64,000 nucleotides of DNA from a virus (IMGVR_UViG_3300013383_000019); one strand, 5' to 3'. Numbered from the stretch's first letter, positions 4,021-20,735 are shown. The notes: generated from the letters alone by a model not told the origin. Program-made: numbers and translations.

Positions 4021-4108
4021 GTTAAATATTTCACATTGAAATGAAAAACTTAAGTGAACGAATGGATATGGTCTAGGGAAGAGTAGGGATATATACTTCG
4101 TATATATA
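4021..4108 (+). repeat. Copy A of the 90 bp regulatory repeat module. It contains aaaacttaagtgaac and the palindrome atatatacttcgtatatat.
   Basis: About 85-90% identical to 4231..4317 and to the inverted copy 20645..20735. Confidence 0.8.
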
Positions 4109-4230
4109 AACTGTAATATTTGGGAGCTGCGGTCTTGGCGGTTTGTCTCCGACCTTTGGTCATGACCTTGACCTCAGCCTTCGGCCTTCGGCCTTGGCCA
4201 GACCATGAAATTAGTTATTACGATATACAT

Positions 4231-4317
4231 GTTAAATATTTCACATTGAAACAAAAAACTTAAGTGAACATGAGGATATCGGTCTTGGGAAGAGTAGGAT
4301 ATATACTTCGTATATAT
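4231..4317 (+). repeat. Copy B of the 90 bp regulatory repeat module, a direct tandem of copy A.
   Basis: Sequence identity to 4021..4108. Confidence 0.8.
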
Positions 4318-4481
4318 GGGCTCAGGTTCTGATCTTGAAATAAGGGGAGTTTCTGCACTTCTTCGCAGCTTCGCTCTGCTCAGAAGTACAGAAATGTCAT
4401 CGCTTCGGAACGGCCTGCGGCCTTCGCAGCTTCGGCCTTGGGACCTTGGGGCAGGGGCCTCATACCTTCTTGGAATTATCG

Positions 4482-4505
4482 TTAAATAATTCACATTAAA
4501 ACAAG
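4482..4505 (+). repeat. Partial copy C of the 90 bp module (gttaaataattcacattaaaacaa).
   Basis: Matches the 5' end of copies A and B. Confidence 0.5.
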
Positions 4506-5249
4506 GGGCGCGGCTTCGCAATTTCGTGGCTTCGCGGCTTCGCGGCTTCGGCCGTTGTCTTCGCTCCTGGGGGCTTCAGCTTCAAAGAAAAAATATCTCT
4601 GCAACGGGAAGGTTATGCCCGAAACCCACTCCCAATATATCCGACAACGGTTAAGGCCGAAATTTATTTCGATATTTATCGAAGCAAAATGGCGGGTTTT
4701 GGACGTTTTTCAGGCATTTTTCAGGGGGATTGGCGGAGCATTTGGGCGTCTTTGAAGGCCATTTTATGATATAGTTTAATAACGAATTCACCATGAAATG
4801 AGCGACCAGAGAGTGAACAGCCAGAGAAGCTGGCGCGAGCTGAGGTGAAATGGGTAAAGATTGTGCAAAGTTATGGCTGGGAATGCGAAAATATGTTGAT
4901 ATGTAACAGGCATAGAGGATTTGGAAGGCCGCCACACGCCACAAACGTAAACTATCATAACAGGTCATAATATGCCATTATGTCCTGTTATCTTTTTAAC
5001 AATACACATGCTTTTTCTAATAAATATAATGTGTATCGATATGCAATAAAGCGAATAAAAGCCATGGCAAGGCAATGCCTAGCGTCGAACTAGGTAAACG
5101 AGCGTTTACATCATGACAATAGTTATTTATTTAACAATTAAACACTCATTTAATCGTTCACAACAGTAAACATCTGTTTACCTTTTCGTTAAATATTTAA
5201 CGTAGTCCAGCCCAAAGCGCTTCACTTTGCTGAAGCGTCTGCCTTGGCT

Positions 5250-5435
5250 CTCCACCCCTCCACCCCTCCACCCCTCCACCCCTCGGAGGGAAGCGCTCTA
5301 CCCTGATAAAGCGCTTACCCCCGATGCCCTGCCTTCGCCGTCCTTCGCCGTCCTTCGCCGTCCTTCGCCTTCCTTCCCTTCCTTCCCTTCCTTCCTCCCT
5401 CCCTGCCTTCCCTTCCCTTCCCTTCCCTTCCCTAT
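5250..5435. repeat. Polypyrimidine tract on the plus strand, polypurine on the minus strand, with (CCACCCCT)4, (CCTTCGCCGT)3-4 and (CCTTC/CCCTT)n runs. The minus strand carries G4-capable GGGAAG / GGAGGGGT repeats.
   Basis: Direct reading of the sequence: ccacccctccacccctccacccctccaccc ... ccttcccttcccttcccttccc. Confidence 0.8.
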
Positions 5436-5552
5436 ATAGCACCATAATACCAGTTAGATATATCTAACGCCATCCTTTTTGCTATATAATAGGTAGAAAC
5501 CGCCGCCAAGCAAAAAGTTGCGAAAAAAAGCAAAAAAAATTTGCAGAAGGGG

Positions 5553-5581
5553 TTGACATACACTGCATAGTGTGCTATCAT
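5553..5581 (+). promoter_or_regulatory. Sigma70-type promoter: TTGACA, 17 bp spacer, extended TGcTATCAT.
   Basis: Consensus -35 box, exact 17 bp spacing and an extended -10; about 270 nt upstream of the ATG at 5852. Confidence 0.6.
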
Positions 5582-5589
5582 GCGTCATG

Positions 5590-5850
5590 TCAAGACACTG
5601 TGCAGTGTCTTCCGCACCTTGACAGTCCAATAGCCCCCGCCCCCGTCGCAGGGATTGCGCCCCATGGGTGCGCGCCGTCGGTGTATCCGGCAAGGGCGCG
5701 CGAAAAAGCCCACAAGCGCATGATATGCGATAGAGGACGGGCGCACAAGAGCATTTTTCCGCCGCTTGCAGGATTCCTTCCCTGCCAAAAAGCTTATTAA
5801 GGTTACCCAAAAATAATTTAACAGCGGCGCACGCCGCAGAAGGAGAAAAC
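5590..5850 (+). other. Long GC-rich 5' leader, about 260 nt, with a perfect hairpin (aagacactg-tg-cagtgtctt); possibly a structured regulatory RNA.
   Basis: Lies between the promoter and the RBS aaggaga; an inverted repeat at 5590-5612; C- and G-rich tracts. Confidence 0.3.
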
Positions 5851-5851
5851 C

Positions 5852-6649
5852 ATGGAAAAGACCACCACCATCATCAGCGCGGAAAATGCCAAAACCATCG
5901 CCCAGAAAATGACCGAACGGGCAAGTGCGCCTCAAATTAAGACCGTGCGCGTCAACGTCAATCCGTGCTGTTTCGCGTCCAACTTTGCGGAACAGCTGCG
6001 GGAACGCCAAACCGCGCTGGATAACGCCATTGCTCTGTACAAGTCTACCTATACGGAAAAAGGCGATATCATTAGCGCATGGGCGAACGTCGAAACGGCG
6101 CTAGAGGACTATAACGCCGAATACAAAGCCTTGCAGATTGACGCTTTGCGCAACGCCGGGACGGCTGTATATGTCACGTCTCCGATGTGCAAGGTTTGCA
6201 AGGTTCGCCGCGACAAAGACGGGCTTTATAAGTCTATGGACTTTGTTGACATGCCTGTTTTACCGTCTGAGTTCGACGACCGCGAAAAACCCATGTTTGC
6301 AAGTGCCCACTGGAAAGACGCCTTCCGCAACCTTGCGAACGCTTGCGGTTTTGTGTTCGGCGAAGAATGCGCCTTCGAAAACCGCGAAGGTGCTTCTAGC
6401 CGCGCAAAAATCAAAGACGCGCTTGCGGATTGCATTAAAGCTGTTTTCGGCTCTGAGTGCAAATACAGTCCGCGTTCTAGCGACGTTAGCGCGTTACTGT
6501 ACAGTTTCGCAAGTCGTGACACGCGCAACGTTAACAGCTTTAAGCGTATGGCCGTGAGCATGTTCCGTTGGTGCATTATCGACACTATCGGCGCGGCCAT
6601 GAACGGCGCTAGCTACAAATTTACCGCGACCAAAAAAGACGCCGAATGA
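5852..6649 (+). CDS. Hypothetical protein, 265 aa.
   Basis: Track ORF with RBS aggaga, a strong promoter and a downstream terminator. Confidence 0.6.
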   Translation: MEKTTTIISAENAKTIAQKMTERASAPQIKTVRVNVNPCCFASNFAEQLRERQTALDNAIALYKSTYTEKGDIISAWANVETALEDYNAEYKALQIDALRNAGTAVYVTSPMCKVCKVRRDKDGLYKSMDFVDMPVLPSEFDDREKPMFASAHWKDAFRNLANACGFVFGEECAFENREGASSRAKIKDALADCIKAVFGSECKYSPRSSDVSALLYSFASRDTRNVNSFKRMAVSMFRWCIIDTIGAAMNGASYKFTATKKDAE

Positions 6650-6775
6650 CCCTATACCTATACCCTGCCGTCCTGCGGGCGGCGGAAAAATGCTCTTGTG
6701 TGTGTGCTATGATTTTCGATAAAGGCCACCCCTTTGTGGGGCTGGTCTATTTCTCGTGCCTTAATTTATTTCAAT

Positions 6776-6815
6776 AAAGCGTTTGCTCCGGCCTTTTCAA
6801 ACGCTTTATTTTTGC
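6776..6815 (+). terminator. Rho-independent terminator.
   Basis: Stem aaagcgtttg...caaacgcttt followed by atttttg. Confidence 0.6.
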
Positions 6816-7433
6816 CAAACAAGGCAATCATAGCAATGGGCGTTATAAATTTATGGCAAGGCAAGCCTATAACCATAGCTGTATAGCATAGCATGGCATG
6901 GCTTGCGTGCTCTACCTACCATGGCGGCGGTATGCCTATAAGACGCAGCGGCGTTGTATAAAGGCAGGAATCATCATATCCGACGATAGTGGCGGCGGGG
7001 CTGAAAAAGCCATACCCGGCGTATCCTAGCAGGGACAAAACACGCGTTCGAAAGAGCGCCTGTAGCGCGTCGTACCGTTGCGAAACAGGAACGGCTATAA
7101 GGGGATACGATTCTATTTTTGCGCAGAACTTTGCGGTTTGCAAGGGGCGGTTTATGCGAGACCGTCTCTTGCGACCGCAGCAAAGCGAAAGCGGAATGAT
7201 TGTTTTATTGAATTTACAGGAATGTTATAACTATGGATAGAGGAAATTCTACACCATACGAAGAAAATTCGGCTTCGCCCGCTTTGCCTGCGCAGCCTTC
7301 TGCCTTGCATTTGGCTCCGCCTTCGGCCTTGCCGGCCTTGCCTTTTGGCAACAATTCTGCTTCGCCGGCCTTGCCTTCCGGCGGCAGCTATGTTACAATG
7401 GCGGCAGAATGTGAAGGTAAAGGCGGGAAGAAT

Positions 7434-7664
7434 ATGGCGATCGATATGAAGCGGAAAAAGCAATATGATAATGAATGGCAGCGGCAAAATTGTATTCGAA
7501 TAAATTTTACAATTCGAAATAATACCGATACGGCAAAAGGTGTTATGATGTTGAAAGAACAGAAAATACCTGTTACGCCATACATTGAAAAAGCCCTTCG
7601 TAAACAACTCATCGCCGACGGCTATTTACGGCAATCCATCCAATCCAACGAAACAGAAGAATAA
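7434..7664 (+). CDS. Small ribbon-helix-helix-like DNA-binding protein, 76 aa.
   Basis: MAIDMKRKKQYDNEWQRQNCIRINFTIRNN.. resembles CopG/RHH plasmid and phage regulators. The track ORF 7233..7664 has an N-terminal extension that is a translation of Ala/Pro-coding repeat DNA and is probably not real. Confidence 0.45.
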   Translation: MAIDMKRKKQYDNEWQRQNCIRINFTIRNNTDTAKGVMMLKEQKIPVTPYIEKALRKQLIADGYLRQSIQSNETEE

Positions 7665-7678
7665 CCTGCAAAATTGAG

Positions 7679-7716
7679 AACAGCCCTATGCGCAAGCCGC
7701 GGGGGCTGTTTTTCTA
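7679..7716 (+). terminator. Rho-independent terminator.
   Basis: Stem acagccc...gggctgt followed by ttttc. Confidence 0.5.
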
Positions 7717-7964
7717 TGCCCAAAATTAAGCAAAGGAGGTAATCCTCACCCGGATCCTCATGCCTTATGGTGTGAATTATGCAGTCGTTGGCGAATGGCG
7801 GAATATCATGACGGTGTTTATGTCTGCAAACCGCAGCGGGTTTCATGCCGGTGTGCGCGGCGTTTGAGCCCGGCTTATGAACCGGCGCAGCTGCTTGCGG
7901 CTCAACAGCTCTACGGCTCTGCCTATATGGCAAATAAAGGAGGTGTGCAATTCGAAAATCGTAG

Positions 7965-8112
7965 ATAACGATGCGGGAAATTTGTAAATTCCTGCATCGC
8001 CCATCGCCACATCGCGGAAATTTACAAATTTGTCGGATCGTCTGATTGCGGAAATTCTGGAATAGCCTGATTGCGGAAATTTATATTTAAGACATCGCGG
8101 AAATTTCAAAGG
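7965..8112 (+). promoter_or_regulatory. Array of five GATTGCGGAAAT(TT) / CATCGCGGAAATTT repeats with AAATTTGTAAATT palindromic cores; a putative operator and promoter region for the early operon.
   Basis: Five copies within 150 bp, immediately upstream of the RBS aaaggagga and the ATG at 8123. Confidence 0.55.
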
Positions 8113-8122
8113 AGGAATCCCC

Positions 8123-8269
8123 ATGGACTACATCACCAGCGCAGCATACCTGTACGACGGCGGCTGGCGCAAAGAGGACAAGGAGCAGCTGATTGCGGAA
8201 TATGGCCTTTCAGAAGAGGACGCGCAGAAAATCTGCGCAGAGCTTGCAAGATTTGAAGAGGAGGAATAG
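8123..8269 (+). CDS. Small early protein, 48 aa; the first gene of the early operon.
   Basis: RBS aaaggagga; ends in TAG immediately before the next gene. Confidence 0.5.
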   Translation: MDYITSAAYLYDGGWRKEDKEQLIAEYGLSEEDAQKICAELARFEEEE

Positions 8270-8271
8270 CA

Positions 8272-8505
8272 ATGCGGGACGCTATGCGAAACATCTGGGA
8301 ATCTGCGCAAATTGGGCGCAAAGTCGGAGTGGTGGCGCTGGTGATCGTGCTGATGACCGGCGCATTTTTTGTGGGCGGAATCTGGGCGGTCACGCATATG
8401 CACGTCTACACCCGGCAGGGCGGAGAAGTCCGCGCGGAGGTATTCGGCAATGTGTTCAGCCATAACGCCGGGCAAATTCGCAGTTGGAGGGGGCGGATGG
8501 AATGA
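8272..8505 (+). CDS. Small membrane protein, 77 aa.
   Basis: Track ORF with RBS ggaggaa; hydrophobic core VGVVALVIVLMTGAFFVGGIWAV. Confidence 0.55.
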   Translation: MRDAMRNIWESAQIGRKVGVVALVIVLMTGAFFVGGIWAVTHMHVYTRQGGEVRAEVFGNVFSHNAGQIRSWRGRME

Positions 8506-8699
8506 TTGCGAAACTTGCCGCGCTGTATCTGGCGCTGAGCATGGCCGCGTCGGCGGCCTATAATACCTGCCCGCAGCATGCGTGGGACATCGCGGAACAT
8601 CGCAGCGGGCTGTTAATCGTGTCGGTGGACGAGGACGGAATCTGGCTGTTGAACCCGCTGAGCAATGCGGGAGACGATTGGTTAGGAGGAATAAAATGA
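8502..8699 (+). CDS. Hypothetical protein, 65 aa.
   Basis: ATGA overlap with the previous gene; RBS ggaggg. Confidence 0.5.
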   Translation: MIAKLAALYLALSMAASAAYNTCPQHAWDIAEHRSGLLIVSVDEDGIWLLNPLSNAGDDWLGGIK

Positions 8700-8917
8700 G
8701 CAATCTCAAAACGGCAGACCTTTTCGGGCTGGATAATCGCGAAAATTCCAATAATCGCGGAACCTACGACGTTACCATTGCCGGCGGAGAGCGCAAGCGC
8801 AGCGTGTTCGCGCCGACCCGCAAGGACGCAATTCATCAGGCATGGCGGGAGCGCTGGCTTGACCCGGAACTGGGCAACGATTGGGACGAAATCGAAATTA
8901 AACGGAGGAGGAAATAA
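8696..8917 (+). CDS. Hypothetical protein, 73 aa.
   Basis: ATGA overlap; RBS ggagga. Confidence 0.5.
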   Translation: MSNLKTADLFGLDNRENSNNRGTYDVTIAGGERKRSVFAPTRKDAIHQAWRERWLDPELGNDWDEIEIKRRRK

Positions 8918-8919
8918 CC

Positions 8920-9519
8920 ATGTCCATTTACGGAAATTCCATGTTGGCCACACTGCGCCGGGATTGCGACGGCGAATTCATCGCGCTGAGCACCTGCGCA
9001 AAATTGGACGGGCGGCACGGCCGCTTTTTAATCAACGCAGACCGGCTGGGCAAATGGCTGGCTTCAAATACCGGCGACGAATTCTACGATTCTGATTGCG
9101 GAAACTGGCTGCGCATCACTCCGGCGGGAACCCTGCAGCTGTGCTGGGTGAGCAGTGTCGGCGGCAACAAGGGTATGTGTTTAACGCAGACCCTTCGCGT
9201 AGACCGCGCGGCGCTGAAACAGCTCATCACCGGCGAACAGGAATCCTTGAAGCTGTTCGTCCCGGAGAATCGGAGCGGCAGGGCGCGGATTGAACTGGCG
9301 CAGAGCGCCCATGTTCCTCGGAACCCACACATGCGGCGCGCGTTCAGCAAAGCCTTGGCGCGGGCGTTTGGCTGGGAGGGCGCGACCATTACGCTGTACC
9401 CGGACGGCGCGCAGGATTATTACTTCGTGGAGACGTGTGAGAACGGCAAGCGTGGAATCTGCGGCGGGCTGATCTATTCGGATTATCGCGGACATAGCCA
9501 GTATAACGTGCATACCTGA
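8920..9519 (+). CDS. Hypothetical protein, 199 aa.
   Basis: Track ORF with RBS ggaggagg. Confidence 0.6.
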   Translation: MSIYGNSMLATLRRDCDGEFIALSTCAKLDGRHGRFLINADRLGKWLASNTGDEFYDSDCGNWLRITPAGTLQLCWVSSVGGNKGMCLTQTLRVDRAALKQLITGEQESLKLFVPENRSGRARIELAQSAHVPRNPHMRRAFSKALARAFGWEGATITLYPDGAQDYYFVETCENGKRGICGGLIYSDYRGHSQYNVHT

Positions 9520-9537
9520 CAAAGGGAGGATATCGCA

Positions 9538-9666
9538 ATGATGATTTTTACAACTCGCAAGGAAGCGGAAGAATTCGCCTATGGCGATGAAGTTGTCGTC
9601 AAGGTGGACGGCGGCTGGGCAGTCATGAAGGCGCAGGATTATAACGTGTGGAAGGAGCAGAAATAA
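9538..9666 (+). CDS. Small protein, 42 aa.
   Basis: RBS aaagggagga; coupled to the next gene. Confidence 0.4.
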   Translation: MMIFTTRKEAEEFAYGDEVVVKVDGGWAVMKAQDYNVWKEQK

Positions 9667-9668
9667 CC

Positions 9669-10043
9669 ATGATGTACAATACGATTCGAGAAGCTGCGAC
9701 CGCGTGGGTGAATTCATTTAACGCGGTGCCCACTACGGTAGTTGAAAAGCTGATGCAGCTTGACCTTGACGATGTGCGGGAAATCACGCCCGGCCGCAGG
9801 GACGAGGATGCAGACTATCTTCCCATGTGGGGCACGATGTGGTCGTTCGGCGACTCCGCGGACGATTACTGGCTTGAGGAGGAAGACGGGCTGGAGCTTA
9901 TGGCCGAGTGCGGCTTCCGCATCTACGAGCAGGAGGATTTCGGCTACCTCTTCGGTATCGACGGAGCCGGTTACAGCTTCATGGACAACCATTGGATTCC
10001 GCTGTATAAGGCGCGCGGACTGCAGTGGCATAGGGAGGAATGA
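9669..10043 (+). CDS. Hypothetical acidic protein, 124 aa.
   Basis: RBS ggaaggag; in-frame portion of the track ORF 9648..10043. Confidence 0.55.
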   Translation: MMYNTIREAATAWVNSFNAVPTTVVEKLMQLDLDDVREITPGRRDEDADYLPMWGTMWSFGDSADDYWLEEEDGLELMAECGFRIYEQEDFGYLFGIDGAGYSFMDNHWIPLYKARGLQWHREE

Positions 10044-10046
10044 ACC

Positions 10047-10748
10047 ATGCAGCGCTACAAAACCGAATACGATGCTCAGGCCGGTGAATTCATGCGCAAA
10101 TGGGGCGTGAAGATTCGCCGGCATTTTGTTGGGAAAATGCGGTACTTCCCGTATGACCGCGAACCGCGCAACGTGTGGGAAATTACGCTGGAGCGCGGCG
10201 ACCACGGGTATTCCTTCGCGTTCGGAGACAGCTTTGCCAACACGCAGAAATCCCCGCGCCATGAGCCGTCCGATTACAACATTCTGGCGTGCGCATCGGT
10301 GGATTCCCGCTTTGATTGCGCGGATGTGCGGGACATGATCGATAAATATGGATGTGGCGAACCCGGAGATCAGCGCGAATTTGACATACTCAACCGCATT
10401 TTGCTTACATCTAACGAACACAGTCGAAAACTGCGAGAAATGTTCGCGGATTGTCTCGACGAATTGCGGAGATTCGGTGATATGGCGGACGTGAACCCGA
10501 AACTTCGTCCGGAACTTGAACCGCTGACGGAGAAAATTCAGCGCCATGAGCTCCGGCTCCAGCAGTACGGCGAGCAGTTGCGGGAAAAGGGCGGATACAA
10601 GGATTATGAAACCCAGTTTGCGTGGGACGTGCTGCACAAAGTGATGATGACGTTCGAAATCCACAGATGGTATGACGAATATGGCTGCAACGACCAGGAT
10701 ATCACGGCGCTGGCCATTGCGGCGTGCAAAAAGGCGGGGGTGCTGTGA
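10047..10748 (+). CDS. Hypothetical protein, 233 aa.
   Basis: Track ORF with RBS gggagga. Confidence 0.6.
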   Translation: MQRYKTEYDAQAGEFMRKWGVKIRRHFVGKMRYFPYDREPRNVWEITLERGDHGYSFAFGDSFANTQKSPRHEPSDYNILACASVDSRFDCADVRDMIDKYGCGEPGDQREFDILNRILLTSNEHSRKLREMFADCLDELRRFGDMADVNPKLRPELEPLTEKIQRHELRLQQYGEQLREKGGYKDYETQFAWDVLHKVMMTFEIHRWYDEYGCNDQDITALAIAACKKAGVL

Positions 10749-10943
10749 ATGGTAAAGATCGAATTTGCAACAGGCAACGCGGCCTTCGAGGGCGATTACG
10801 AAATCGCGGAAGTGCTCACTTGTCTCGACCGGCTGAAGGGGCTCATTTATTCCGGCCGCAGGAGCGGCAAGGTTATGGACAGCAACGGGAACTGCGTCGG
10901 CGAATGGACGCTGGATTCGAAAAATGCGAAAGCAGAGGGTTAG
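10749..10943 (+). CDS. Hypothetical protein, 64 aa, ending ..KNAKAEG*(TAG).
   Basis: Track ORF. Its 29-bp 3' junction sequence is repeated at 11158. Confidence 0.5.
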   Translation: MVKIEFATGNAAFEGDYEIAEVLTCLDRLKGLIYSGRRSGKVMDSNGNCVGEWTLDSKNAKAEG

Positions 10944-10945
10944 CG

Positions 10946-11182
10946 ATGGACGATGCGCGTTATGCCTGCAAATATTGCGGCACGGAAATCCTGTGGGAAA
11001 AGTCTGACGAGAATCGCGGCGAGATTTGGTGCTGCGAAAAGTGCGGCGAACCCTTTTGCGCGCAGTGCGCGATCGACCGCATCGGTAAGCAGGCTTATCT
11101 GGATATGATGCAGATGAAGAAGGGCGACGAGTTGATTCTTTGTCCGGACTGTTATGCGAAAAATGCGAAAGCGGAGGGTTAG
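10946..11182 (+). CDS. Zinc-ribbon protein, 78 aa (CxxC ... CxxC ... CxxC), also ending KNAKAEG*(TAG).
   Basis: RBS gagggttagcgATG; four CxxC pairs. Confidence 0.55.
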   Translation: MDDARYACKYCGTEILWEKSDENRGEIWCCEKCGEPFCAQCAIDRIGKQAYLDMMQMKKGDELILCPDCYAKNAKAEG

Positions 11183-11184
11183 CG

Positions 11185-11604: not shown

Positions 11605-11607
11605 ACC

Positions 11608-11928: not shown

Positions 11929-11942
11929 GCCGGAGGATGCAA

Positions 11943-12499: not shown

Positions 12500-12501
12500 C
12501 T

Positions 12502-12978: not shown

Positions 12979-12998
12979 ACACGGGAGGAGGAAGAATT

Positions 12999-13268
12999 AT
13001 GGCAAATGGATTTGACAAGCTCGGCTTCTTTGAAATGTCGTGCAAGGAATATTGCTGCGAAGAGGTACCGATGTTCGAGAGACTTATCTGGAACGTCATT
13101 TGCGACGCCTATACCAACCACAACACCAGCAAAGACCAGATAGTGCTGCGTCTGGCGGACATGCTGCCTGATTACTCCTTCGGCGAAGTCGCGCAGTTTG
13201 CAGACGATTCCTGCCTAACCGAATGGGGCAAGGCTGAGAAGCGCGAATGGAAGGAGGCACACAAATGA
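12999..13268 (+). CDS. Hypothetical Cys-containing protein, 89 aa.
   Basis: RBS gggaggagg. Confidence 0.5.
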   Translation: MANGFDKLGFFEMSCKEYCCEEVPMFERLIWNVICDAYTNHNTSKDQIVLRLADMLPDYSFGEVAQFADDSCLTEWGKAEKREWKEAHK

Positions 13269-13579
13269 CCGGCAAGCTCAGCCGGTATGAGATGGAAACC
13301 AGCATCCTCTGGAATGAGGAAGAGAAAACCTGCACCTGCTTCACCTGCTCCCCGGCGCTTCAGCGCAGGCTGGACGGTTTATGTGCAAAATCCTTGTTGA
13401 TTCACAGGGAAGAAATGGGCGACGGTGGTATCCGGTACACTTTCCCCAAGAAGTGGGTGCGTGTCGTTATGCCTTGTGCGCTCACAGAGGAAGAGAAAGA
13501 AAAACGCGCCCTGCGCATTAAGGAAGCGCGCGAACAGCGGCGTATCGCGAAGAAGGAGGAACCGGCGAATGAGAATTGA
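13265..13579 (+). CDS. Hypothetical protein, 104 aa.
   Basis: RBS ggaaggagg; 4-nt overlap. Confidence 0.5.
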   Translation: MTGKLSRYEMETSILWNEEEKTCTCFTCSPALQRRLDGLCAKSLLIHREEMGDGGIRYTFPKKWVRVVMPCALTEEEKEKRALRIKEAREQRRIAKKEEPANEN

Positions 13580-13955
13580 GTGCTGCGTGCCCGTTGCGGG
13601 CGTGGATATCAGTAAGGCGCGCAATGCGCGCATGGTGGATGCCAAGACCAACCGTATCCGGCTCTCCGTGATCTATAATTTGGGCGGAACCAACTGTTTC
13701 ACCTACAAGAACGAACCCCGCGGCTATTACCTGCACGCCACGCCGGAATATGAGTATGGGCACGTGGTAAGTTGTTTCCTCGGCTCAGGCATTAAACATT
13801 TGCTGCTGGAAGTGCCGCGCCAATCCAAGAAGCGGGCGATAGAAGCTTGTGCCAATGCGGAACAGCTCGCCCCGCAGCTGGTGGAATGGTGCTGCAACGA
13901 ATACGGGCTGACCGTAGAGCCGACCGAAATCAAATTCAACGTGGAGGGAAAATAA
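13569..13955 (+). CDS. Hypothetical protein, 128 aa.
   Basis: RBS aggagga. Confidence 0.5.
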   Translation: MRIECCVPVAGVDISKARNARMVDAKTNRIRLSVIYNLGGTNCFTYKNEPRGYYLHATPEYEYGHVVSCFLGSGIKHLLLEVPRQSKKRAIEACANAEQLAPQLVEWCCNEYGLTVEPTEIKFNVEGK

Positions 13956-14290
13956 TGAAGCTCATCACAAAAGAAATCGAACGCCGGCTGGAAAAATATC
14001 CGTTTGGCTCGCAGGACGGCGAAGGCAAAGGCGCACAGGTGCTGGTCAAGTTCTTCGGCGGCGGCACCTGCACATGGCTGGTCACGGAAGCGGAACGTAC
14101 CGACGACGGCGGCTGGGATTTCTACGGCCTTGCCAACATCGGCTACGGCTGGGAGTGGGGCTGGTTCAGCCTGCAGGAGCTGGAAGAAGTGAAGTTCCCG
14201 CCGTTCGGTCTGGGCGTTGAGCGGGATCTATATCTGCCCGCCGGCGCAGTCGTGAAAGACCTGATCGGGGAGGATGCCGTTTTTTGCTGA
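13955..14290 (+). CDS. Conserved phage/ICE-type hypothetical protein, 111 aa (KYPFGSQDGEGKGAQVLVKFFGGGTCTWLVTE...GWEWGWF).
   Basis: RBS ggaggg; the motif pattern recalls conserved mobile-element proteins, but the family name is uncertain. Confidence 0.5.
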   Translation: MKLITKEIERRLEKYPFGSQDGEGKGAQVLVKFFGGGTCTWLVTEAERTDDGGWDFYGLANIGYGWEWGWFSLQELEEVKFPPFGLGVERDLYLPAGAVVKDLIGEDAVFC

Positions 14291-14404
14291 GAATCCTTAA
14301 TGCGGCACAAGCGCGGAGAAGATGTCGCACCGGATAGGGGTTAGGATACACCGCGAACTAGAGCATGAGAAACCCTGTGTCTGCAGGGGCTTGGAGGACA
14401 AAGA

Positions 14405-14755
14405 ATGGGCTATCTGACTTCGTATTCTATGGAGGCGCTGCATGTCGCGGCGCAGGATGTTGAAAAGATAGAAGCGGCTATCGAGGAGCTGAATATGCCG
14501 CTGGGCGACTTCTATTACGACCCGCAGGATCAGGTCTTTAACGCGGAGCCGAATGGAGAATGGCGCTGGTACGGCCATGAGGACGATATGGCTGAGCTCA
14601 GCGAGCGTTTCCCCGGCGCGCTCTTCAAGCTGCACGGCGAGGGAGAGAACCGCGACGATGTGTGGGATAAATACTTCGCCGGCGGCGAGATGATCGAGAA
14701 GGTTTACGCGGTGATGTTTATGCCGGAGCCGAAGAAGGTGAAATGGGAGGCGTAG
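14405..14755 (+). CDS. Hypothetical acidic protein, 116 aa; ends in TAG.
   Basis: Track ORF with RBS ggaggacaaaga. Confidence 0.55.
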   Translation: MGYLTSYSMEALHVAAQDVEKIEAAIEELNMPLGDFYYDPQDQVFNAEPNGEWRWYGHEDDMAELSERFPGALFKLHGEGENRDDVWDKYFAGGEMIEKVYAVMFMPEPKKVKWEA

Positions 14756-14837
14756 GTCGGTACACCGACATACGAAGCAAGGAGGGCAGAATAAATTAAA
14801 CTATCATTCATTCAGCAAGAATAGCGCAGTTAATGTA

Positions 14838-14869
14838 ACCGTCGCAAATACTCTGCGGCGGTTTTTATT
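14838..14869 (+). terminator. Rho-independent terminator at the end of the early operon.
   Basis: Stem accgtcgca / tgcggcggt (one mismatch) followed by ttttatt. Confidence 0.5.
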
Positions 14870-14890
14870 AATCAAACGGAGGTTATAATT

Positions 14891-15868
14891 ATGCAGAAAG
14901 TCAACGTGAACGCGAACGGAACTTCCAAGCCTACCACCCTTGAAGATATCGCGAAAATCGTCGGGTGCAGCGAGAGCCACGCCTATTGCGTTCTTACCGG
15001 CAGGAACAATGGAACAGACGCAGATAAAATTCGCGAAGTCGCCCGGAAGATGAATTATGATCCACGCAAGGCAAAGCTGAAAAGAAGCTGGGATATTGCT
15101 GATTTGGAAAAGATCCAGGCACCTGCCGCCCCTGTGGCGTCCTTCGCCGAGTTGGGAGAGTTGCTTGGCTTCAAGCGCCAAAATGTAAGTAGTTATTACT
15201 ACGGCTCGCAGGGTTCCCCCGCGCTCATCGCTTATGTCCGCGCCGCCGCAGAACGCTTTGGCTATATCCCCGGCCGGAAAAAGAAGCGCAGCAAACCTTC
15301 CGGCTACGTCTCCGCCAAAGACATCGCCCAGCGCACCGGCTATGCGGTCAGCACCGTATACAACGCGCTCGAATCCACCCCGAACAGGCTCCCCGCGGCC
15401 ACCGTTCAGAAAATCCGGGACGCCGCCAAAGAAATGGGCTATAACCCCGCCCGCTATCAGCCGCCGCACACCGGCAAGCAGAACCCGCACGCTTACTTGA
15501 AGCATTCCAATTTCCCCTCTCCGGAGGTCGAGAAGGAACGCATGGAAATCCTGCGCAAGCAGGGCTATACCAATGAAGAAATCGCCCAGAAAATCGGCAA
15601 GTCCTACCTGCACGTGCTCACCAAGCTCGGCGCGCAGCCCAAGGCCATCACGCACATGAGTCTCACCGCCGCGGCCGCAGATCGCCGCTTCCGCAAACAG
15701 CTGCGCGAACGCTATCAGCTGCAGGGCATGCTGGAAGAATACATCGCTGCCGAGGCCGAGCTGGAGCAGATGAAGGCAAAGGAATCCGCGCTCAAGGCCA
15801 AGATCGTCGAGCTCAAGCCGCATGTCGACCGCGCCGGCCAGCTCGATAAGCAAATTTCCGCAAAATAA
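14891..15868 (+). CDS. Regulator with four tandem helix-turn-helix domains (at least two LacI-type HTHs) and a C-terminal coiled coil; no ligand-binding domain.
   Basis: TLEDIAKIVGCSESHAYCVLTG...KIREVARKMNYDP and SAKDIAQRTGYAVSTVYNALES...KIRDAAKEMGYNP are LacI-HTH-like repeats; FAELGELLGFKRQNVSSYY and TNEEIAQKIGKSYLHVLTKLG are two further HTHs. Confidence 0.6.
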   Translation: MQKVNVNANGTSKPTTLEDIAKIVGCSESHAYCVLTGRNNGTDADKIREVARKMNYDPRKAKLKRSWDIADLEKIQAPAAPVASFAELGELLGFKRQNVSSYYYGSQGSPALIAYVRAAAERFGYIPGRKKKRSKPSGYVSAKDIAQRTGYAVSTVYNALESTPNRLPAATVQKIRDAAKEMGYNPARYQPPHTGKQNPHAYLKHSNFPSPEVEKERMEILRKQGYTNEEIAQKIGKSYLHVLTKLGAQPKAITHMSLTAAAADRRFRKQLRERYQLQGMLEEYIAAEAELEQMKAKESALKAKIVELKPHVDRAGQLDKQISAK

Positions 15869-15896
15869 TTTTGCACAGGTGAAAAAACAGGGGCTC

Positions 15897-15916
15897 AAAT
15901 GTTCCCTTTATTATAC
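15897..15916 (+). promoter_or_regulatory. Conserved phage promoter motif AAATGTTCCCTTTATTATA, copy 2 of 5.
   Basis: The same 18-mer as at 3950(-), 29139, 48355 and 53843; about 30 nt upstream of the ATG at 15948. Confidence 0.55.
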
Positions 15917-15947
15917 GAGAAAACAATTTTCCAAGGAGGTCGATCCC

Positions 15948-16229
15948 ATGCCTGAAAACTTCATCGACCTGTGCTACGAACTCATCAAGCAGCTGGAACA
16001 GAACCACGAACTGTTCGAGAAGATCGAGCGCGGCGAAATCACCGATAACGAGGAGGGCCAGCTGATCGTCAACGCCGCGGTCGCGGCCAAAGGGGCGCTC
16101 GAAGCCGAAATCCGCCGCCGCATGAGCGATCCCACCGTGCCCGAAGAGGATAAGGCCGCCGGCGCGATGCTGGTTCTCTCCTATGACGCGGAACGGAAGA
16201 ACGGAAAAGAGGAGGCGCTCGCGGAATGA
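15948..16229 (+). CDS. Hypothetical protein, 93 aa.
   Basis: RBS aaggagg. Confidence 0.5.
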   Translation: MPENFIDLCYELIKQLEQNHELFEKIERGEITDNEEGQLIVNAAVAAKGALEAEIRRRMSDPTVPEEDKAAGAMLVLSYDAERKNGKEEALAE

Positions 16230-16429
16230 CCCACGTAGTCACAGTTGAAATCCGCCGGTTCTACCGGGTGTATGTCGAAGACGAAAACAATTCCCTGACC
16301 GGCAGCGAAATCACCGATAAAGCAAAGGAGGAAGTGCTCGAACATCAGGACGCTGTGCTGACCGACGACCTTGATCTGGAAATCGAACCGCAGGATATCC
16401 TGCACGTCGAATATGAATATTCATTCTAA
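16226..16429 (+). CDS. Hypothetical acidic protein, 67 aa.
   Basis: Track ORF with a 4-nt overlap. Confidence 0.45.
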   Translation: MTHVVTVEIRRFYRVYVEDENNSLTGSEITDKAKEEVLEHQDAVLTDDLDLEIEPQDILHVEYEYSF

Positions 16430-16444
16430 TAGGAGCGTATAATT

Positions 16445-17518
16445 ATGAAGTACGGCCGCACCCTGATGGAACTCGCGCAGGAAATCGAACGCCAGAACAA
16501 TGCTAAGCGCGACTATCTTGTCGATACCGCGCAGCTCACCATGGGGCTTGATGTAACCGATGAAGTCCGCCTGAACATCGATAACAGCGCTTACGCTTTT
16601 CACGTCAACGAAGTCGCCCATCAGCAAATCGGCCAGCAGACGGGCATTCCGCTCCCCTATTATCGCCGGATGCTCAGCGACGCGCCCGGCCTGCTCGCCA
16701 CCAATGTCAACCACTGGATGCGGCACCGGGACGAGGACGCAAAGGAGCGCCGCCGCATGGTGCGCACGCTGGATAACACTGCCCGCGCCTTCCTCTCCGA
16801 TCGTTATCGCCGCATCGATAACTACGAAATCGCCAACATCGTCCTCCCCATCCTCGGCGAAATCAAGGATGTGCAAATCGCCAGCTGCGAGGTCACCGAC
16901 CGCAAGCTGTATATCAAAGCCGTCAACCCGCGCCTTCAGGCGGACGTGACCCCCGGCGACGTCGTGCAGTCCGGTATCTGCATCACCAATTCGGAGGTCG
17001 GCCTCGGCAGTTTCGAAGCCTCCCCGCTCGTCTATCGGCTGGTGTGTTCCAACGGCATGGTTGTAAATGATGCGGCGCAGAAGCGCCGTCATATTGGGGC
17101 CAAAGCCCAGCAGGGCGAAGACTATGCGCTCTATGCGGATGAAACCATTACGGCGGACGACCGCGCGTTCATGCTGAAGGTGCGTGATACCGTGCGCGCT
17201 ATTGTGGATGAGACGCAGTTTGATAAGGTGGTCGCCATGATGCAGGAAGCCCGCGATGCGAAGATCACCGCCGAAAGCATCCCCGCCTTCGTCGAGCTCA
17301 CCGCCAAGGAATATGCCATTGGCAAAAAGGAAAGCGAGAGCGTCCTCAGCTACCTCATTCATGGCGGCGATCTCAGCTTGTACGGCCTGAGCAACGCCGT
17401 CACCCGCTTCAGCCAGGACGTGCCCAGCTATGACCGCGCTTCCGAGCTGGAAAGCATCGGCTATGATGTGCTGTCCATGCCGGCGAAGAAATGGAAGCAG
17501 CTGAACCACTCGGCGTAA
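16445..17518 (+). CDS. DUF932-like phage/plasmid protein, 357 aa.
   Basis: Overall resemblance to the DUF932 family, including a CSNGM-type motif (LVCSNGMVV). Confidence 0.5.
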   Translation: MKYGRTLMELAQEIERQNNAKRDYLVDTAQLTMGLDVTDEVRLNIDNSAYAFHVNEVAHQQIGQQTGIPLPYYRRMLSDAPGLLATNVNHWMRHRDEDAKERRRMVRTLDNTARAFLSDRYRRIDNYEIANIVLPILGEIKDVQIASCEVTDRKLYIKAVNPRLQADVTPGDVVQSGICITNSEVGLGSFEASPLVYRLVCSNGMVVNDAAQKRRHIGAKAQQGEDYALYADETITADDRAFMLKVRDTVRAIVDETQFDKVVAMMQEARDAKITAESIPAFVELTAKEYAIGKKESESVLSYLIHGGDLSLYGLSNAVTRFSQDVPSYDRASELESIGYDVLSMPAKKWKQLNHSA

Positions 17519-17767
17519 TGAGGCTCATTCATTGCAAGGGGTTTCCAAAGTGGAAGACCCTTCCCCATGCGGTGTGCCTTAAAACGGGGTATACCATACC
17601 CCATAGACGGCGGTAATATTGCCCGGCTGGATGATGGGGGTACCGTAGTTTTAACCACGGTATTTGCAGCAATCCGCAAAGGAGGGTACGCAAATGAACA
17701 CCCCTAGCAAAGCGTAGGCGGTAATCATTGTAAAAGAACCTGAACTTTATTCCGAGGAGGAAATTGA

Positions 17768-18526
17768 ATGGAAAACCAGACGCAAATTTTTAACAACGAA
17801 CAGTTTGGAAACGTCAGGATTATCGAGGAAGCCGGGAAATTCTTGTTCTGCGGCAGCGATGTAGCGAAGGCGCTGGGATATGCCCGTCCTAATGACGCGA
17901 TCGCCGCGCATTGCCGGTATACGGCAAAACGCAGTATACCTCACCCGCAGGCCGCGGATAAACAAATCGACATGATTTTCATTCCCGAAGGCGACGTTTA
18001 CCGCCTCATCACCCACAGTAAACTCCCGGATGCAGAAAAATTCGAACGCTGGGTGTTCGACGAAATACTTCCCGCCATCCGCAAAACGGGCGGCTACATC
18101 GCCGGCGAAGAAAACATGACAGACGATGAGCTCGTCGCCAAGGCGCTCATTATCACAACCGAGAAGCTCAAGCAGCGCGAAGCAAGGATTGCCGCGCTCA
18201 GCGCGCAGATCGAGGAAGATCGCCCCTATACTCATTTCGGCAAGTCCATCTCCGCCAGCGACGCCACCATCCTGCTCGGCGATTTCGCCAAGGTCGCCGC
18301 CAACAGCGGCATTCCCATCGGCCGCAACCGGCTCTTCAAGTGGCTGCGCGATAACAAATACCTCATGCCGGATAATAAACCGTATCAGCGGTATGTCGAT
18401 CAGGGCGTGTTCGCTGTCAAGGAAAGCAAGGTCTTCACCGGCTTTGAGGAAACCATCCGGACAACCACGCTCGTCACCGGCAAAGGGCAGAAATATCTCA
18501 TGGAACGATTGGAGGCCGGCGCATAA
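17768..18526 (+). CDS. Phage antirepressor with a Bro-N domain and a KilA-C domain.
   Basis: N-terminal FNNEQFGNVRII..FCGSDVAKALGY (Bro-N); C-terminal KilAC-like region; RBS gaggagg. Confidence 0.7.
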   Translation: MENQTQIFNNEQFGNVRIIEEAGKFLFCGSDVAKALGYARPNDAIAAHCRYTAKRSIPHPQAADKQIDMIFIPEGDVYRLITHSKLPDAEKFERWVFDEILPAIRKTGGYIAGEENMTDDELVAKALIITTEKLKQREARIAALSAQIEEDRPYTHFGKSISASDATILLGDFAKVAANSGIPIGRNRLFKWLRDNKYLMPDNKPYQRYVDQGVFAVKESKVFTGFEETIRTTTLVTGKGQKYLMERLEAGA

Positions 18527-18734
18527 GCCGTGGACAGTTCATGTTCACCGTTGATGGAAGAGGTTCGCCGCGGTCGTGCAGTTCTGCAAAGACAACAAGC
18601 GCTATCGCGATTGCTGCCAGTAACAAGACGCCGAGAGGTGTTGCTCCGGCGGTCGGGAACAAAAATACCAAGCCGCTGTAATTGCTTACAGCTTGTAACA
18701 CGCAGGTTACGCCACGCAAGAGATAAATCATCAA
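18498..18734 (-). CDS. Small membrane protein, 78 aa; paralog of 36590..36871.
   Basis: Shared block NYSGLVFLFPTAGATPLGVLLLAAIAIALVVF; sits antisense within a plus-strand gene array. Confidence 0.45.
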   Translation of the reverse strand: MMIYLLRGVTCVLQAVSNYSGLVFLFPTAGATPLGVLLLAAIAIALVVFAELHDRGEPLPSTVNMNCPRLMRRPPIVP

Positions 18735-18813
18735 TTTGGTTAAAAACTTACGGCTCGGCGTTTTCTTCCATCAACCGTGGACATGAACATTATAACATGC
18801 AAGGAGCCTTGAA

Positions 18814-19350
18814 ATGAAACTTGATATCGACGATACGAAATTTTTCGACGACCCAATCTTCGGCAACCTCTGGGCGATAAAAACAAACGGCGTGTGGTGG
18901 TTTTCCGGGCTGAATATCGCGCACTCGCTCGGATATGAGAATCCGGAAGCCGCCGTGAAAAACCATTGTGCGCCGGCTGGTATTGTCTGGCGGGAAGACA
19001 GGCCGTGCGTCTCGCTCAGCAACGCGCTTCGGCTCACAGCGTTCAGCACATCTCCCAAAGCCACAGCATACGGCGACTGGCTCGGCAACGACGTGGTCCC
19101 CGCGCTCTTCAAAAAAAACAGCATCTATTGCATCCCAAGCAAGGACGAAACCACATGGCGCAGCGCTATGGCACTTCTGATTGTCGCGCTTATCGTCTCC
19201 TTTGGATCGCTCGCAATCCATCTGATCGCTCATTCGGACTTGCATAAAAATTCAATTACGGCAACTAATCCGCCGGCGATTGTGGCAACTGCGATTGCCG
19301 CCCTCCCCCAGGAAGATCTCATCCTCTCAAATCTATCGCGAAAATATTGA
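18814..19350 (+). CDS. Bro-N domain protein with a C-terminal TM segment.
   Basis: FGNLWAIKTNGVWWFSGLNIAHSLGYENP is the Bro-N signature. Confidence 0.6.
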   Translation: MKLDIDDTKFFDDPIFGNLWAIKTNGVWWFSGLNIAHSLGYENPEAAVKNHCAPAGIVWREDRPCVSLSNALRLTAFSTSPKATAYGDWLGNDVVPALFKKNSIYCIPSKDETTWRSAMALLIVALIVSFGSLAIHLIAHSDLHKNSITATNPPAIVATAIAALPQEDLILSNLSRKY

Positions 19351-19532
19351 ACCCCTTCCTCGCTGATATAGTACTGCACCTCGGTTGGGGTGCCGCACTG
19401 AAAATTCAGAAATTTACGAGTTGCAAGTCCTTTTTGATAAAGCGGGAAACCTTCTTCTTGCGTAAGCTTCTCGCCGCGCTTCAATCGAACCAGATCGCGA
19501 TGCTCTTTTTTCGTAAGCTTAAGGGTATCCAT
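19230..19532 (-). CDS. Hypothetical protein with a C-terminal TM segment, 100 aa; its tail overlaps 18814..19350.
   Basis: Track ORF with RBS gaggtgg; the convergent 120-nt overlap lowers confidence. Confidence 0.3.
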   Translation of the reverse strand: MDTLKLTKKEHRDLVRLKRGEKLTQEEGFPLYQKGLATRKFLNFQCGTPTEVQYYISEEGVQYFRDRFERMRSSWGRAAIAVATIAGGLVAVIEFLCKSE

Positions 19533-19610
19533 ACAACCACCTCGCCCTTGATTATATCATATAATCCGGCGTCATAAAATCATGAGCGGAACAAAACAAA
19601 AACGGGACGG

Positions 19611-19892
19611 TTACCCGCCCCATTCCTTCCTTGTCGGCGCGATTGCGGCTAACCATCCCAGCCAGGAAATAACGATTAGTCCAATCGCCAGCCACTCTGC
19701 CGGGATAAACCCGAGCTACGCCAACCCTACCCCGATGTAACCCATCAGGCTGCGCTGAATCATCGCCCCGCGTGCCGCGAGGGCGACCCCAGCTGAATTC
19801 AGCGCAAAGTTTACAGGGAAAGGCGCAAGCGCTCCGGTCTATCCAAGTATGAGTGAAACCGACGCAGAATGTTTATCGAGCAACTTTATCAT
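19611..19892 (-). CDS. Small membrane protein, 93 aa, with two in-frame TAG codons (codons 18 and 59) and its own promoter. Either amber-gated or a pseudogene.
   Basis: Reads MIKLLDKHSASVSLILG*TGALAPFPVNFALNSAGVALAARGAMIQRSLMGYIGVGLA*LGFIPAEWLAIGLIVISWLGWLAAIAPTRKEWGG; RBS gggaggag; extended -10 TGgTATAAT about 50 nt upstream. Confidence 0.4.
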
Positions 19893-20040
19893 TTTCTTTT
19901 CTCCTCCCAAAACAAAATGGCGAAAGGAAAAGAAACGCAAGCGCTCTTATTTGCATTATACCATACGTAGAACAGGTGTGCAACGTTCCGCTCATGATCT
20001 TATGGCGCTGGACGCGCCAAATAAAACAGGAGGTATCCAT

Positions 20041-20307
20041 ATGCAGGATAACAACGACAAAGCGAAAAGAAAACAGGTCAGGGATGTTATCGATTCTATA
20101 AAGCTGCTCGGCTGCGCGGTTTTGTTCACCGGCTGCGGCGCAACGTTGCCCACCCGTGTGCCGGGCGTATCAGTACTGGAAACAGGACCGCTGTGGGCGG
20201 TGCCGGTAATGTGGGTCGGCGCGCTCATCCTTGTAGCTCTCAGTGTCTGGATGAACCACAACAAAGAAAAATGGCAGGAACCCGAAGAGAAAAACGAAAC
20301 CAAGTAA
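20041..20307 (+). CDS. Small membrane or lipoprotein-like protein, 88 aa.
   Basis: RBS aggaggt; sequence LLGCAVLFTGCG and a TM helix. Confidence 0.45.
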   Translation: MQDNNDKAKRKQVRDVIDSIKLLGCAVLFTGCGATLPTRVPGVSVLETGPLWAVPVMWVGALILVALSVWMNHNKEKWQEPEEKNETK

Positions 20308-20331
20308 AGCAAAGCAAAGGAGCGTAAAACC

Positions 20332-20637
20332 ATGACCCTTACAGCCGGTATTCTCAGCGTCCTTTTCGTCCTCGCCCTCGTCACAGCGTCCTTCTTCCTC
20401 GGCATGCGCATTTCGAATCTCTATCACCGGCATGAGCAGGAGGCGATCAGCAGCGCCCTCCGCCGCAATAAGGAAGCCGCGCATGAGAACTATCTCATGT
20501 CCGAGCGGGAACGCTGGTGGAACGCGTACAGCGCGACATCTGCCAAGACAGGTTCAAGCTCCAAAGCGCAGGTAATCCCCGTCGAGTTCACCGATAAGCT
20601 GAGCTCCGAAGGAAAGGCGACGATACGGATTCACTAA
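20332..20637 (+). CDS. Membrane protein, 101 aa.
   Basis: Track ORF with an N-terminal TM helix. Confidence 0.45.
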   Translation: MTLTAGILSVLFVLALVTASFFLGMRISNLYHRHEQEAISSALRRNKEAAHENYLMSERERWWNAYSATSAKTGSSSKAQVIPVEFTDKLSSEGKATIRIH

Positions 20638-20644
20638 GTCCGCT

Positions 20645-20735
20645 ATATACGAAGTATATATCCTACTCTACTCAAGACCATTACCATTCGTTCACTTAAG
20701 TTTTTTGCTTAAATGTGATTGTTTTAACAATTATG
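20645..20735 (-). repeat. Inverted third copy of the 90 bp regulatory repeat module, about 170 bp upstream of antirepressor gene 20890.
   Basis: Its reverse complement aligns at about 85% with 4021..4108, including the palindrome tatatacgaagtatatat and aaaacttaagtgaac. Confidence 0.75.

Follow-up and report, generated by a model that had tools for sequence, protein, structure and literature searches.

The window considered here is a 64-kb stretch of viral DNA (IMGVR_UViG_3300013383_000019) that belongs to a large phage of a gut bacterium, relatives of which lie on contigs of 110-133 kb. A non-coding module of approximately 90 bases is present in the window in three copies, which were confirmed by a repeat search in both orientations. 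Two copies lie in tandem upstream of a primase-polymerase (prim-pol) gene, and the third lies in inverted orientation upstream of an antirepressor-type gene, at the opposite edge of a block of small early genes. The copies and the genes next to them are as follows.

4020..4108, minus strand: copy A, read towards the primase
4215..4317, minus strand: copy B, a tandem duplicate of A with a 210-bp period
4481..4505, minus strand: head-only remnant GTTAAATAATTCACATTAAAACAA, found by motif search
20643..20744, plus strand: copy C, inverted relative to A and B
2494..3918, minus strand: AEP primase-polymerase, 474 aa (PF22548; fold match to CAPP and RSF1010 RepB')
20332..20637, plus strand: last gene of the early block, 101 aa, with an N-terminal hydrophobic, transmembrane-like segment
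20890..22035, plus strand: antirepressor-type gene with two Bro-N domains and KilAC/ANT, by domain search

The repeat search returned a direct match between 4020-4069 and 4230-4279 and inverted matches into 20644-20744. By global alignment, copies A and B are identical at 80 of 90 positions (89%), A and C at 73 of about 88 shared positions (~83%) and B and C at 76 of about 90 (~84%). The initial annotation had described a direct pair and an inverted third copy "about 85%" identical to it, and repeat searches, sub-motif searches and alignments all bear out this description, including the estimate of identity. Some 15 bases past the gene-proximal end of the module, its head, are common to B and C (4215-4229 vs 20736-20750) and are lacking in A. 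The sequence AAAACTTAAGTGAAC occurs exactly in A, B and C and nowhere else in the 64 kb (0.07 expected), while the 19-nt palindrome ATATATACTTCGTATATAT is exact at 4089-4107 and 4299-4317 (0 expected) and is found with one mismatch on the reverse strand at 20643-20661. On the plus strand, the palindrome of A and B reads ATATATAC-TTC-GTATATAT. The head GTTAAATATTTCACATTGAAA starts at 4021 and 4231 and recurs alone, with 2 mismatches, at 4481, where a partial copy had already been noticed. Taken together, the sub-motifs and repeats of the module far exceed chance expectation. The internal parts, and two related dyads that stand alone, are given below.

4107-4089, minus strand: palindrome of copy A, ATATATAC-GAA-GTATATAT, followed by CCCTACTCT
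4059-4045, minus strand: box GTTCACTTAAGTTTT of copy A
4034-4021, minus strand: head dyad GTGAAATATTTAAC of copy A
8 nt past the stop codon of the 101-aa gene, plus strand: start of the palindrome of copy C, TATATAC-GAA-GTATATA, followed by CCTACTCT
20690-20704, plus strand: box GTTCACTTAAGTTTT of copy C
20722-20735, plus strand: diverged head of copy C
5122-5135: stand-alone head-type dyad GTTATTTATTTAAC
5188-5201: stand-alone perfect palindrome GTTAAATATTTAAC of the head type

Dyad symmetry is thus found at three places within the module, and the 14-bp head dyad, which is specific to the window's lineage, occurs five times in 4021-5201. The polarity towards the faced gene is identical in every copy, with the head proximal and the palindrome distal, as had been stated at the outset. 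A distance of 120-170 bp from the start of the downstream gene had also been proposed. This figure is only approximate: copy C ends 146-155 nt from the antirepressor ATG (20890), copy A 102 nt and copy B 297-312 nt from the primase ATG (3918). The palindrome in the window lies 180-190 nt upstream of the prim-pol ATG.

Promoters between the module and the genes it faces

The module is not recognisably a promoter itself; a separately conserved promoter stands between it and each of the two genes. A sigma-70 scan returned no promoter-like site inside copies A, B or C. In relatives carrying the module type here called type 2, a weak TTGGTA-17-TATACT overlaps the palindrome, the -10 element of which is CCTACT in the window. 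The promoter elements and their family members are located as follows.

3947..3998, minus strand: D1 promoter-like element, between copy A and the primase
15862-15940, 29105-29183, 48321-48399 and 53808-53886: the other members of the D1 family
20762..20791, plus strand: P_ant, TTGACA-N18-TGcTTAACT, between copy C and the antirepressor ATG
20805-20813 and 20832-20840, plus strand: arms GTTTCACGG and CCGTGAAAC of a leader hairpin after P_ant

The consensus of D1 is AAAAATnTTTTT..AAAcTGAAAAA..AAATGTTCCCTTTATTA. In the window, the core AAATGTTCCCTTTATTA is found at five places, every time a short way upstream of a gene, with the cores away from the primase at 15897, 29140, 48356 and 53843. Genes bearing a ribosome-binding site follow the D1 copies, namely prim-pol, a 93-aa gene at 15948, AAA_24, Band_7 and the region before NrdD. 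Upstream of the primase, D1 is kept in the relatives inspected there, including small integrated elements. D1 probably represents a phage-specific class of middle or late promoters. The window also has, at 35245-35847, a gene whose product contains sigma-70 region 4.

P_ant consists of TTGACA at 20762-20767, an 18-nt spacer and TGc-TTAACT at 20783-20791. It is almost invariant among relatives and in the window lies 110 bp from the palindrome centre. In relatives, a conserved leader of approximately 320 nt with repeated GGGTG.CGTGAAAC-like segments extends from P_ant to the Bro-N gene (L015 10430-10780, L027 18440-18755, L029 10890-11230, L124 1290-1560 and L151; L-numbers denote related contigs). 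In L124 an insertion sequence lies within this leader, downstream of P_ant (1690-2900). The leader of the window is only 90 nt long and contains the hairpin GTTTCACGG/CCGTGAAAC. No Rfam match was obtained for the P_ant leader, which in the relatives may be an undescribed cis-regulatory RNA.

The gene identities given at the outset, an AEP prim-pol and a double Bro-N antirepressor, were upheld by domain searches. The structural model of the prim-pol has a pLDDT of 87.6. Its N-terminal prim-pol fold matches CAPP (E 3e-10), and the model also matches RepB' structures 3h20 (E 7e-5) and 3h25 (E 2e-3), the latter a structure of RepB' bound to its initiator DNA. In the structure search, the C-terminal part gave a weak match to winged-helix regulators; no helicase domain is present in the 474 aa.

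The module pair among relatives

Twenty-five related contigs were collected via the primase, via the 101-aa gene before copy C and via a mid-block gene spanning both sites. They represent Oscillospiraceae phages of ~120 kb and small integrated elements of ~13 kb, and the fetched loci measure 6-20 kb each. The palindrome is present wherever its position is covered, on 12 primase-side contigs and 18 antirepressor-side contigs, 5 of which cover both sites. The pair is always inverted, outward-facing and bracketing the early block, the length of which varies from 6.3 kb in L151 through ~10 kb in L029 and L030 and 16.5 kb in the window to ~17.5 kb in L027; across the clade the two sites are 6.3-17.7 kb apart. 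All 18 contigs of the antirepressor side place the start of the palindrome 6-13 nt past the stop codon of the final early gene, a spacing that holds in L029 and L151 despite a deletion that shortened this gene. From the palindrome centre, it is 104 or 110 bp to the TTGACA of P_ant and 124-153 bp (124, 137, 148 or 153) to the D1 core. No further copies of the module were found in the 64-kb window or in the fetched loci. A miniature inverted-repeat transposable element or insertion-sequence remnant was discarded as an explanation, since only two fixed genomic positions are occupied and scattered copies are absent from the window and the fetched loci.

The universal part of the module is an AT-rich inverted repeat whose 6-11 bp arms enclose G-N-A and which in most cases has ATACTCT after it. 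Read on the sense strand of the downstream gene, the three central bases are GAA or GTA without exception. The arms vary by lineage yet stay complementary, as in ATATATAC/GTATATAT vs TATACTAC/GTAGTATA. On the 3' side of the palindrome at least three module types can be distinguished by their boxes, GTTCAYTTAAG..AATGTGA..TTTAAC, TAACTCT.TTTAGATCACCAAGAAA and ACTCT.T.AGTTCYYTTAAG, and the boxes specific to the window's lineage are GTTCACTTAAG and the 14-bp dyad GTTAAATATTTMAC. Of the conserved core that the initial annotation had proposed, the palindrome is therefore universal, whereas aaaacttaagtgaac is replaced by other boxes in other lineages. Across the clade as a whole, both positions carry every one of the module types. 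The two sites of a single genome are of matching type in the window, L027 and L028 and of differing type in L029, L030 and L151, so co-variation of module type between the two sites was rejected. The number of tandem units also varies; L011 has one full unit and a head remnant beside an insertion sequence, which occupies 1-231.

Megablast of positions 1-24000 against GenBank phages and a search of IMG/VR with module patterns gave no match, and a metagenome scan with a degenerate pattern gave 118 matches, 117 of which were unrelated chance occurrences and only one, L124, a relative. The palindrome was not found in the distant IMG/VR prim-pol relatives L001-L005 (28-33% identity), nor in L025 and L026, distant relatives of the 158-aa early-block protein (12502-12978), indicating that the element is confined to a close clade. 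A scan of a genome collection placed one relative, a single match, in an Oscillospiraceae metagenome-assembled genome.

Integrated elements of ~13 kb are seen in L151, a 272-kb bacterial contig, at ~1490-14700, and also in L029, L030 and L006. Their order is integrase, Bro-N, module, early block, non-coding region, module, D1, AEP prim-pol, a few genes and integrase, and the element lies between host ABC-transporter genes and DnaB/L9/ClpB genes. The left arm of the window (1-29088), with the integrase at its end, is homologous to it. No structural genes were called on the ~13-kb element within the fetched locus, and its primase is under D1 control, so it may be a satellite of the large phages. 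The small elements share the early block and have retained the pair, which makes the module a likely part of the minimal cis-acting equipment of this unit.

Because the copies are inverted, it had been suggested that recombination between them could invert the intervening 16.5 kb. Such inversion, site-specific or homologous, is possible in principle, and the asymmetric centre of the palindrome and the presence of tyrosine recombinase genes at a distance of some kilobases (28192-29088 in the window; in L019 and L022 also near copy C) would suit such sites. The arrangement of the window is nevertheless found in 5 of 5 two-site relatives, and single-site contigs all have canonical flanks, none with a swapped junction; nothing points to an actual occurrence of inversion. 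Known recombination cores measure 6-8 bp for tyrosine recombinases and 2 bp for serine invertases; the arms here are 3 nt apart (GAA or GTA) in every variant, which is not a recombinase-type core. Moreover, where a genome combines two site types, the two have little in common outside the core, and in the window the longest stretch of perfect identity between inverted copies measures 26 bp. We consider inversion sites the most improbable of the explanations. A 10-nt identity of ACTTCGTATA to a loxP arm is probably coincidental, and the dif-site likeness of CTTCCCTAGACC-ATATCC-ATTCGTTCACT was likewise taken as a coincidence, since other module types do not conserve it.

The strict position of copy C behind the last early gene raises the question of an RNA boundary signal at the 3' end of early transcripts, such as a terminator, a processing or stabilising element or a nut/put-like antitermination site. 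The palindrome starts 6-13 nt after the stop codon in 18 of 18 contigs, the orientation always matches the direction of the incoming transcription unit, and the arm change ATACGTAGTATGTAAT in L030 would be a G-U wobble in RNA. Against this, there is no U-tract, the stem is nearly all A-U and weak (-2.5 to -3.8 kcal/mol as DNA), no consensus fold emerges (RNAalifold: no pairs) and the folding z-scores are only -0.6 to -2. In L006 and L010, inspection of the primase-side sequence shows a long hairpin, with T6 after it, on the strand of the palindrome and just upstream of it; the terminator scan overlooks this hairpin on account of its 12-nt loop. Transcripts would therefore often end before they reach the palindrome. 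An RNA signal is accordingly judged improbable. Rfam gave no match in the window at the gathering score and nothing relevant at E<=1 in 3800-6000 of the window or 10250-10850 of L015; with unremarkable z-scores and no consensus structure, an RNA gene or riboswitch was dismissed. Intrinsic terminators at the palindromes were also rejected, as none appeared in scans and the A-T stem is followed by CCTACTCT, not by a T-run. A terminator-like hairpin at 4012-4000 was not counted because the following A/T run belongs to the D1 consensus.

The bracketing of the early block is also reminiscent of DNA-processing marks, either the edges of a long terminal repeat of early genes or nick sites on opposite strands that duplicate such a repeat. 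In Twort-like phages the terminal repeats carry early genes and the non-redundant part is bounded by inverted 12-mers (PMC7596081, PMC11598898), and here too inverted repeats bracket small early genes, approximately 35 of them in a ~120-kb Firmicutes phage; several long contigs break in or near the block. The contig ends, however, fall away from the modules; those of L028 and L029 lie inside the primase gene, by 83 and 315 nt. Unlike the 12-bp repeats of Twort-like phages, the module is ~90 bp long and composite, terminal redundancy is hypothetical here, and the phage carries lysogeny-type genes (an integrase, antirepressors and toxin-antitoxin genes). The same arm is integrated in the bacterial contig L151, and the small elements keep the pair with no packaging genes. 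Such marks thus appear very unlikely, in agreement with the initial view that the copies are not terminal repeats of the sequence.

The early block and other features of the phage

Genes left of 3918 are transcribed leftward. They are followed by 1.9 kb (3919-5851) that is free of convincing open reading frames (ORFs) and rich in simple repeats, and then by the rightward early block of ~35 mostly small genes (5852-20637). A strong sigma-70-type promoter, TTGACA-17-TG-TATCAT, heads this block on the plus strand at 5553..5581. Copy C stands directly after the block and follows the stop codon of the 101-aa gene in every relative. The simple repeats at 4100-4600 and 5250-5433 are strand-biased (GCCTTCG x3.4, CGCGGCTT x5, CTCCACCC x4.4, CCTTCGCCGT x6.5 and CCTTC x15). 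In 3919-5851, CGAAG occurs 18 times on the primase-sense strand vs once on the other. A link between this clustering and the palindrome centre was dropped, because it is confined to the window, L027 and L028 and is absent from L010, L029 and L030.

Inspection of the sequence further suggests a possible small RNA unit at ~4742-5000 on the plus strand, with TTGAAG-17-TTTAAT, about 220 nt, a long hairpin at 4950-4990 and then T5; the segment is 73-80% conserved in L006, L009 and L010. An inverted repeat of 30 nt (5744-5773 / 6671-6700, 93% complementary) surrounds the first early gene, which occupies 5852-6649 and encodes 265 aa with no family match. At 7971-8105, five direct repeats (C/G)AT(C/T)GCGGAAATTT lie within ~130 bp directly upstream of a gene starting at 8123, overlapped by an inverted repeat at 7968-7995 / 8014-8041. 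This arrangement looks like an iteron or operator array. To the left of the primase, a unit of ~410 bp is duplicated at 899-1230 and 1308-1648; both copies contain a -10-like motif with a TG extension and finish in a short hydrophobic reading frame, and the two may be small toxin or membrane-peptide genes.

The window encodes a DnaE-type polymerase with an intein, a Toprim-DnaB primase-helicase, a ligase, a PARP-like protein, NrdD and SHMT, as well as ClpP, AbiE, an AcrIC5-like protein, a tyrosine recombinase and an RHH protein (27770-28015); antirepressors and toxin-antitoxin genes are also carried by the phage. The DnaE-type DNA polymerase III alpha, split by the intein, spans 43573-48354 (PHP, alpha, finger, HhH), and the lowest G+C of the window (0.42) is at 45001-46000.

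Possible upstream control or replication

The conservation of the two-site arrangement across relatives speaks for a cis-acting function shared by both sites. To this extent the original proposal of co-regulated operator and promoter modules is supported; the promoter part is not, given the empty sigma-70 scan. The reading that we favour, tentatively and from sequence features, is that of a protein-binding upstream control module for two outward-facing units. A dimeric DNA-binding protein would bind the dyad, possibly with partners on the other boxes. From this upstream position, the bound protein could switch both outward-facing units together, through activation or through looping and repression, and the expression of the primase and of the Bro-N operon would thereby be coupled to the state of the early region via one regulator.

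Several features are consistent with this control function. The module follows the end of one transcription unit and precedes the next promoter by 104-153 bp, and the pair brackets the early block whatever its length. As would be expected of an operator, the dyad is found at both sites in all relatives and is repeated at the flanking promoters. Its symmetry is kept through symmetric changes of the arms, which points to a dimeric binder, and the three dyads of the module and the five head dyads that occur in the 1.9-kb control region are likewise consistent with sites of the operator type. Candidate binders include the Bro-N proteins, three of which are encoded in the window (17768-18526, 18814-19350 and 20890-22035), the winged-helix tail of the prim-pol and an unannotated early protein. 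Two earlier suggestions fared less well. The gene calls for the fetched parts of the small elements L029, L030 and L151, which keep both modules, do not include the four-helix-turn-helix protein (14891-15868), and no CI-like repressor turned up among the ORFs scanned. The 101-aa neighbour of copy C was also ruled out, as its N-terminal hydrophobic, transmembrane-like segment makes it an unlikely DNA binder.

In temperate phages, operators are repeated at divergent early promoters. Like such shared operators, the modules place dyad sites at two control regions, each oriented to its own promoter, and specificity types are swapped between related phages. They differ in that the sites lie 104-153 bp upstream of the promoters and do not overlap them, in that 6-17 kb separate them and they occupy the outer edges, not the centre, of the early block, and in that the binder is represented by candidates only. 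No match to the module was found in databases or in the literature. The element is undescribed; a repeated cis-module shared by two distant phage control regions is of a familiar kind.

Some observations fit upstream control less comfortably. A distance of 104-153 bp is far for a simple repressor, the spacing to D1 (124, 137, 148 and 153 bp) varies by non-integral helical turns, and the tandem copy B is ~350 bp away from D1; a fixed phase with the promoter is therefore apparently not needed. Since the box types differ in L029, L030 and L151, one regulator could read only TAC-GNA-GTA at both sites. Finally, the strict strand asymmetry of G-N-A is unexpected for the site of a symmetric dimer and fits a single-strand hairpin better.

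In the main alternative, a cis-element of replication, the palindrome and its 3' pyrimidine tract would serve the AEP prim-pol or another initiator for binding or priming, and this site would recur on opposite strands at two places far from each other. This is a doubtful but substantial contender. The module lies directly upstream of the prim-pol gene in 12 of 12 primase-side contigs, and the prim-pol model resembles CAPP and RepB', with a weak winged-helix C-terminus and no helicase. The universal part is AT-rich and hairpin-capable, with the C-GNA-G centre on one strand and ATACTCT 3' of it; an AT-rich, easily unwound element beside an initiator gene is what an origin would present. The spacing between module and promoter is not fixed and tandem duplication is tolerated, and in the ~13-kb integrated elements the prim-pol is the only called replication gene and both modules are kept. 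On the other side, module type follows neither the N-terminal, the middle nor the C-terminal type of the prim-pol. For instance, L006 combines a type-2 module with a window-type prim-pol C-terminus, while L010 and L030 combine type-2 modules with a different C-terminus, 44-53% identical. The second site, remote from the prim-pol gene, coincides exactly with the region upstream of another promoter. The palindrome of copy C is not set within a classical iteron array, and a Toprim-DnaB primase-helicase and a DnaE polymerase are encoded by the large phage itself.

A more specific form of this idea is that the palindromes act as single-strand or cruciform hairpins, recognised by the RepB'-like prim-pol to start DNA synthesis. 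Each would have an 8-bp A-T stem closed by C-G, a G-N-A triloop and then the pyrimidine tract ATACTCT; triloops of the G-N-A type make unusually stable DNA mini-hairpins. The RepB' of RSF1010 recognises the priming hairpins ssiA and ssiB on opposite strands. Here too, short inverted hairpin-forming signals on opposite strands accompany a neighbouring primase gene with a RepB'-like fold. Unlike ssiA and ssiB, which lie side by side in one oriV, the modules are 6-17 kb apart (6.3-17.7 kb across the clade), each upstream of a promoter, and if the geometry resembled that of RepB', synthesis from either site would proceed inward, towards the interior of the early block. We regard this specific form as unlikely. 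P4 ori/crr is a further analogue of a replication cis-element.

Precedents for paired or prim-pol-associated origins exist. Phage SPP1 has two similarly built origins, oriL and oriR, ~13 kb apart and bound by gp38 (PMC6316719), and the likeness extends to two distant composite non-coding copies with an AT-rich part, one beside an initiator gene and the other intergenic and bracketed by transcription signals. The SPP1 origins, however, consist of direct repeats and an unwinding element, with oriL inside gene 38, whereas the conserved part of the module is a short palindrome, and the co-variation with the initiator that origins of the SPP1 or SaPI type would lead one to look for is not seen between module and prim-pol. 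In plasmid pRN1, a stem-loop origin lies next to the prim-pol gene orf904 (PMC4234260), again a structural DNA element beside a prim-pol gene with the structure kept across relatives. That element is a single 100-nt stem-loop downstream of the gene, while the module is upstream and present at two sites, and ORF904 has a helicase domain that the prim-pol of the window lacks.

If the hairpin and prim-pol system were real, it would be a new example of origin specification for AEP primases, a hairpin-specified initiation system in phages and ~13-kb satellite-like elements, and it could also duplicate or amplify the early block. The large Oscillospiraceae phages are uncultivated and essentially uncharacterised. 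In them the module is a concrete non-coding element that is conserved and placed by a fixed rule, with one outward-facing unit at either edge of the early block. Together with its flanking promoters, it offers an entry to the switch between early and later expression, or to the replication starts, in this clade.

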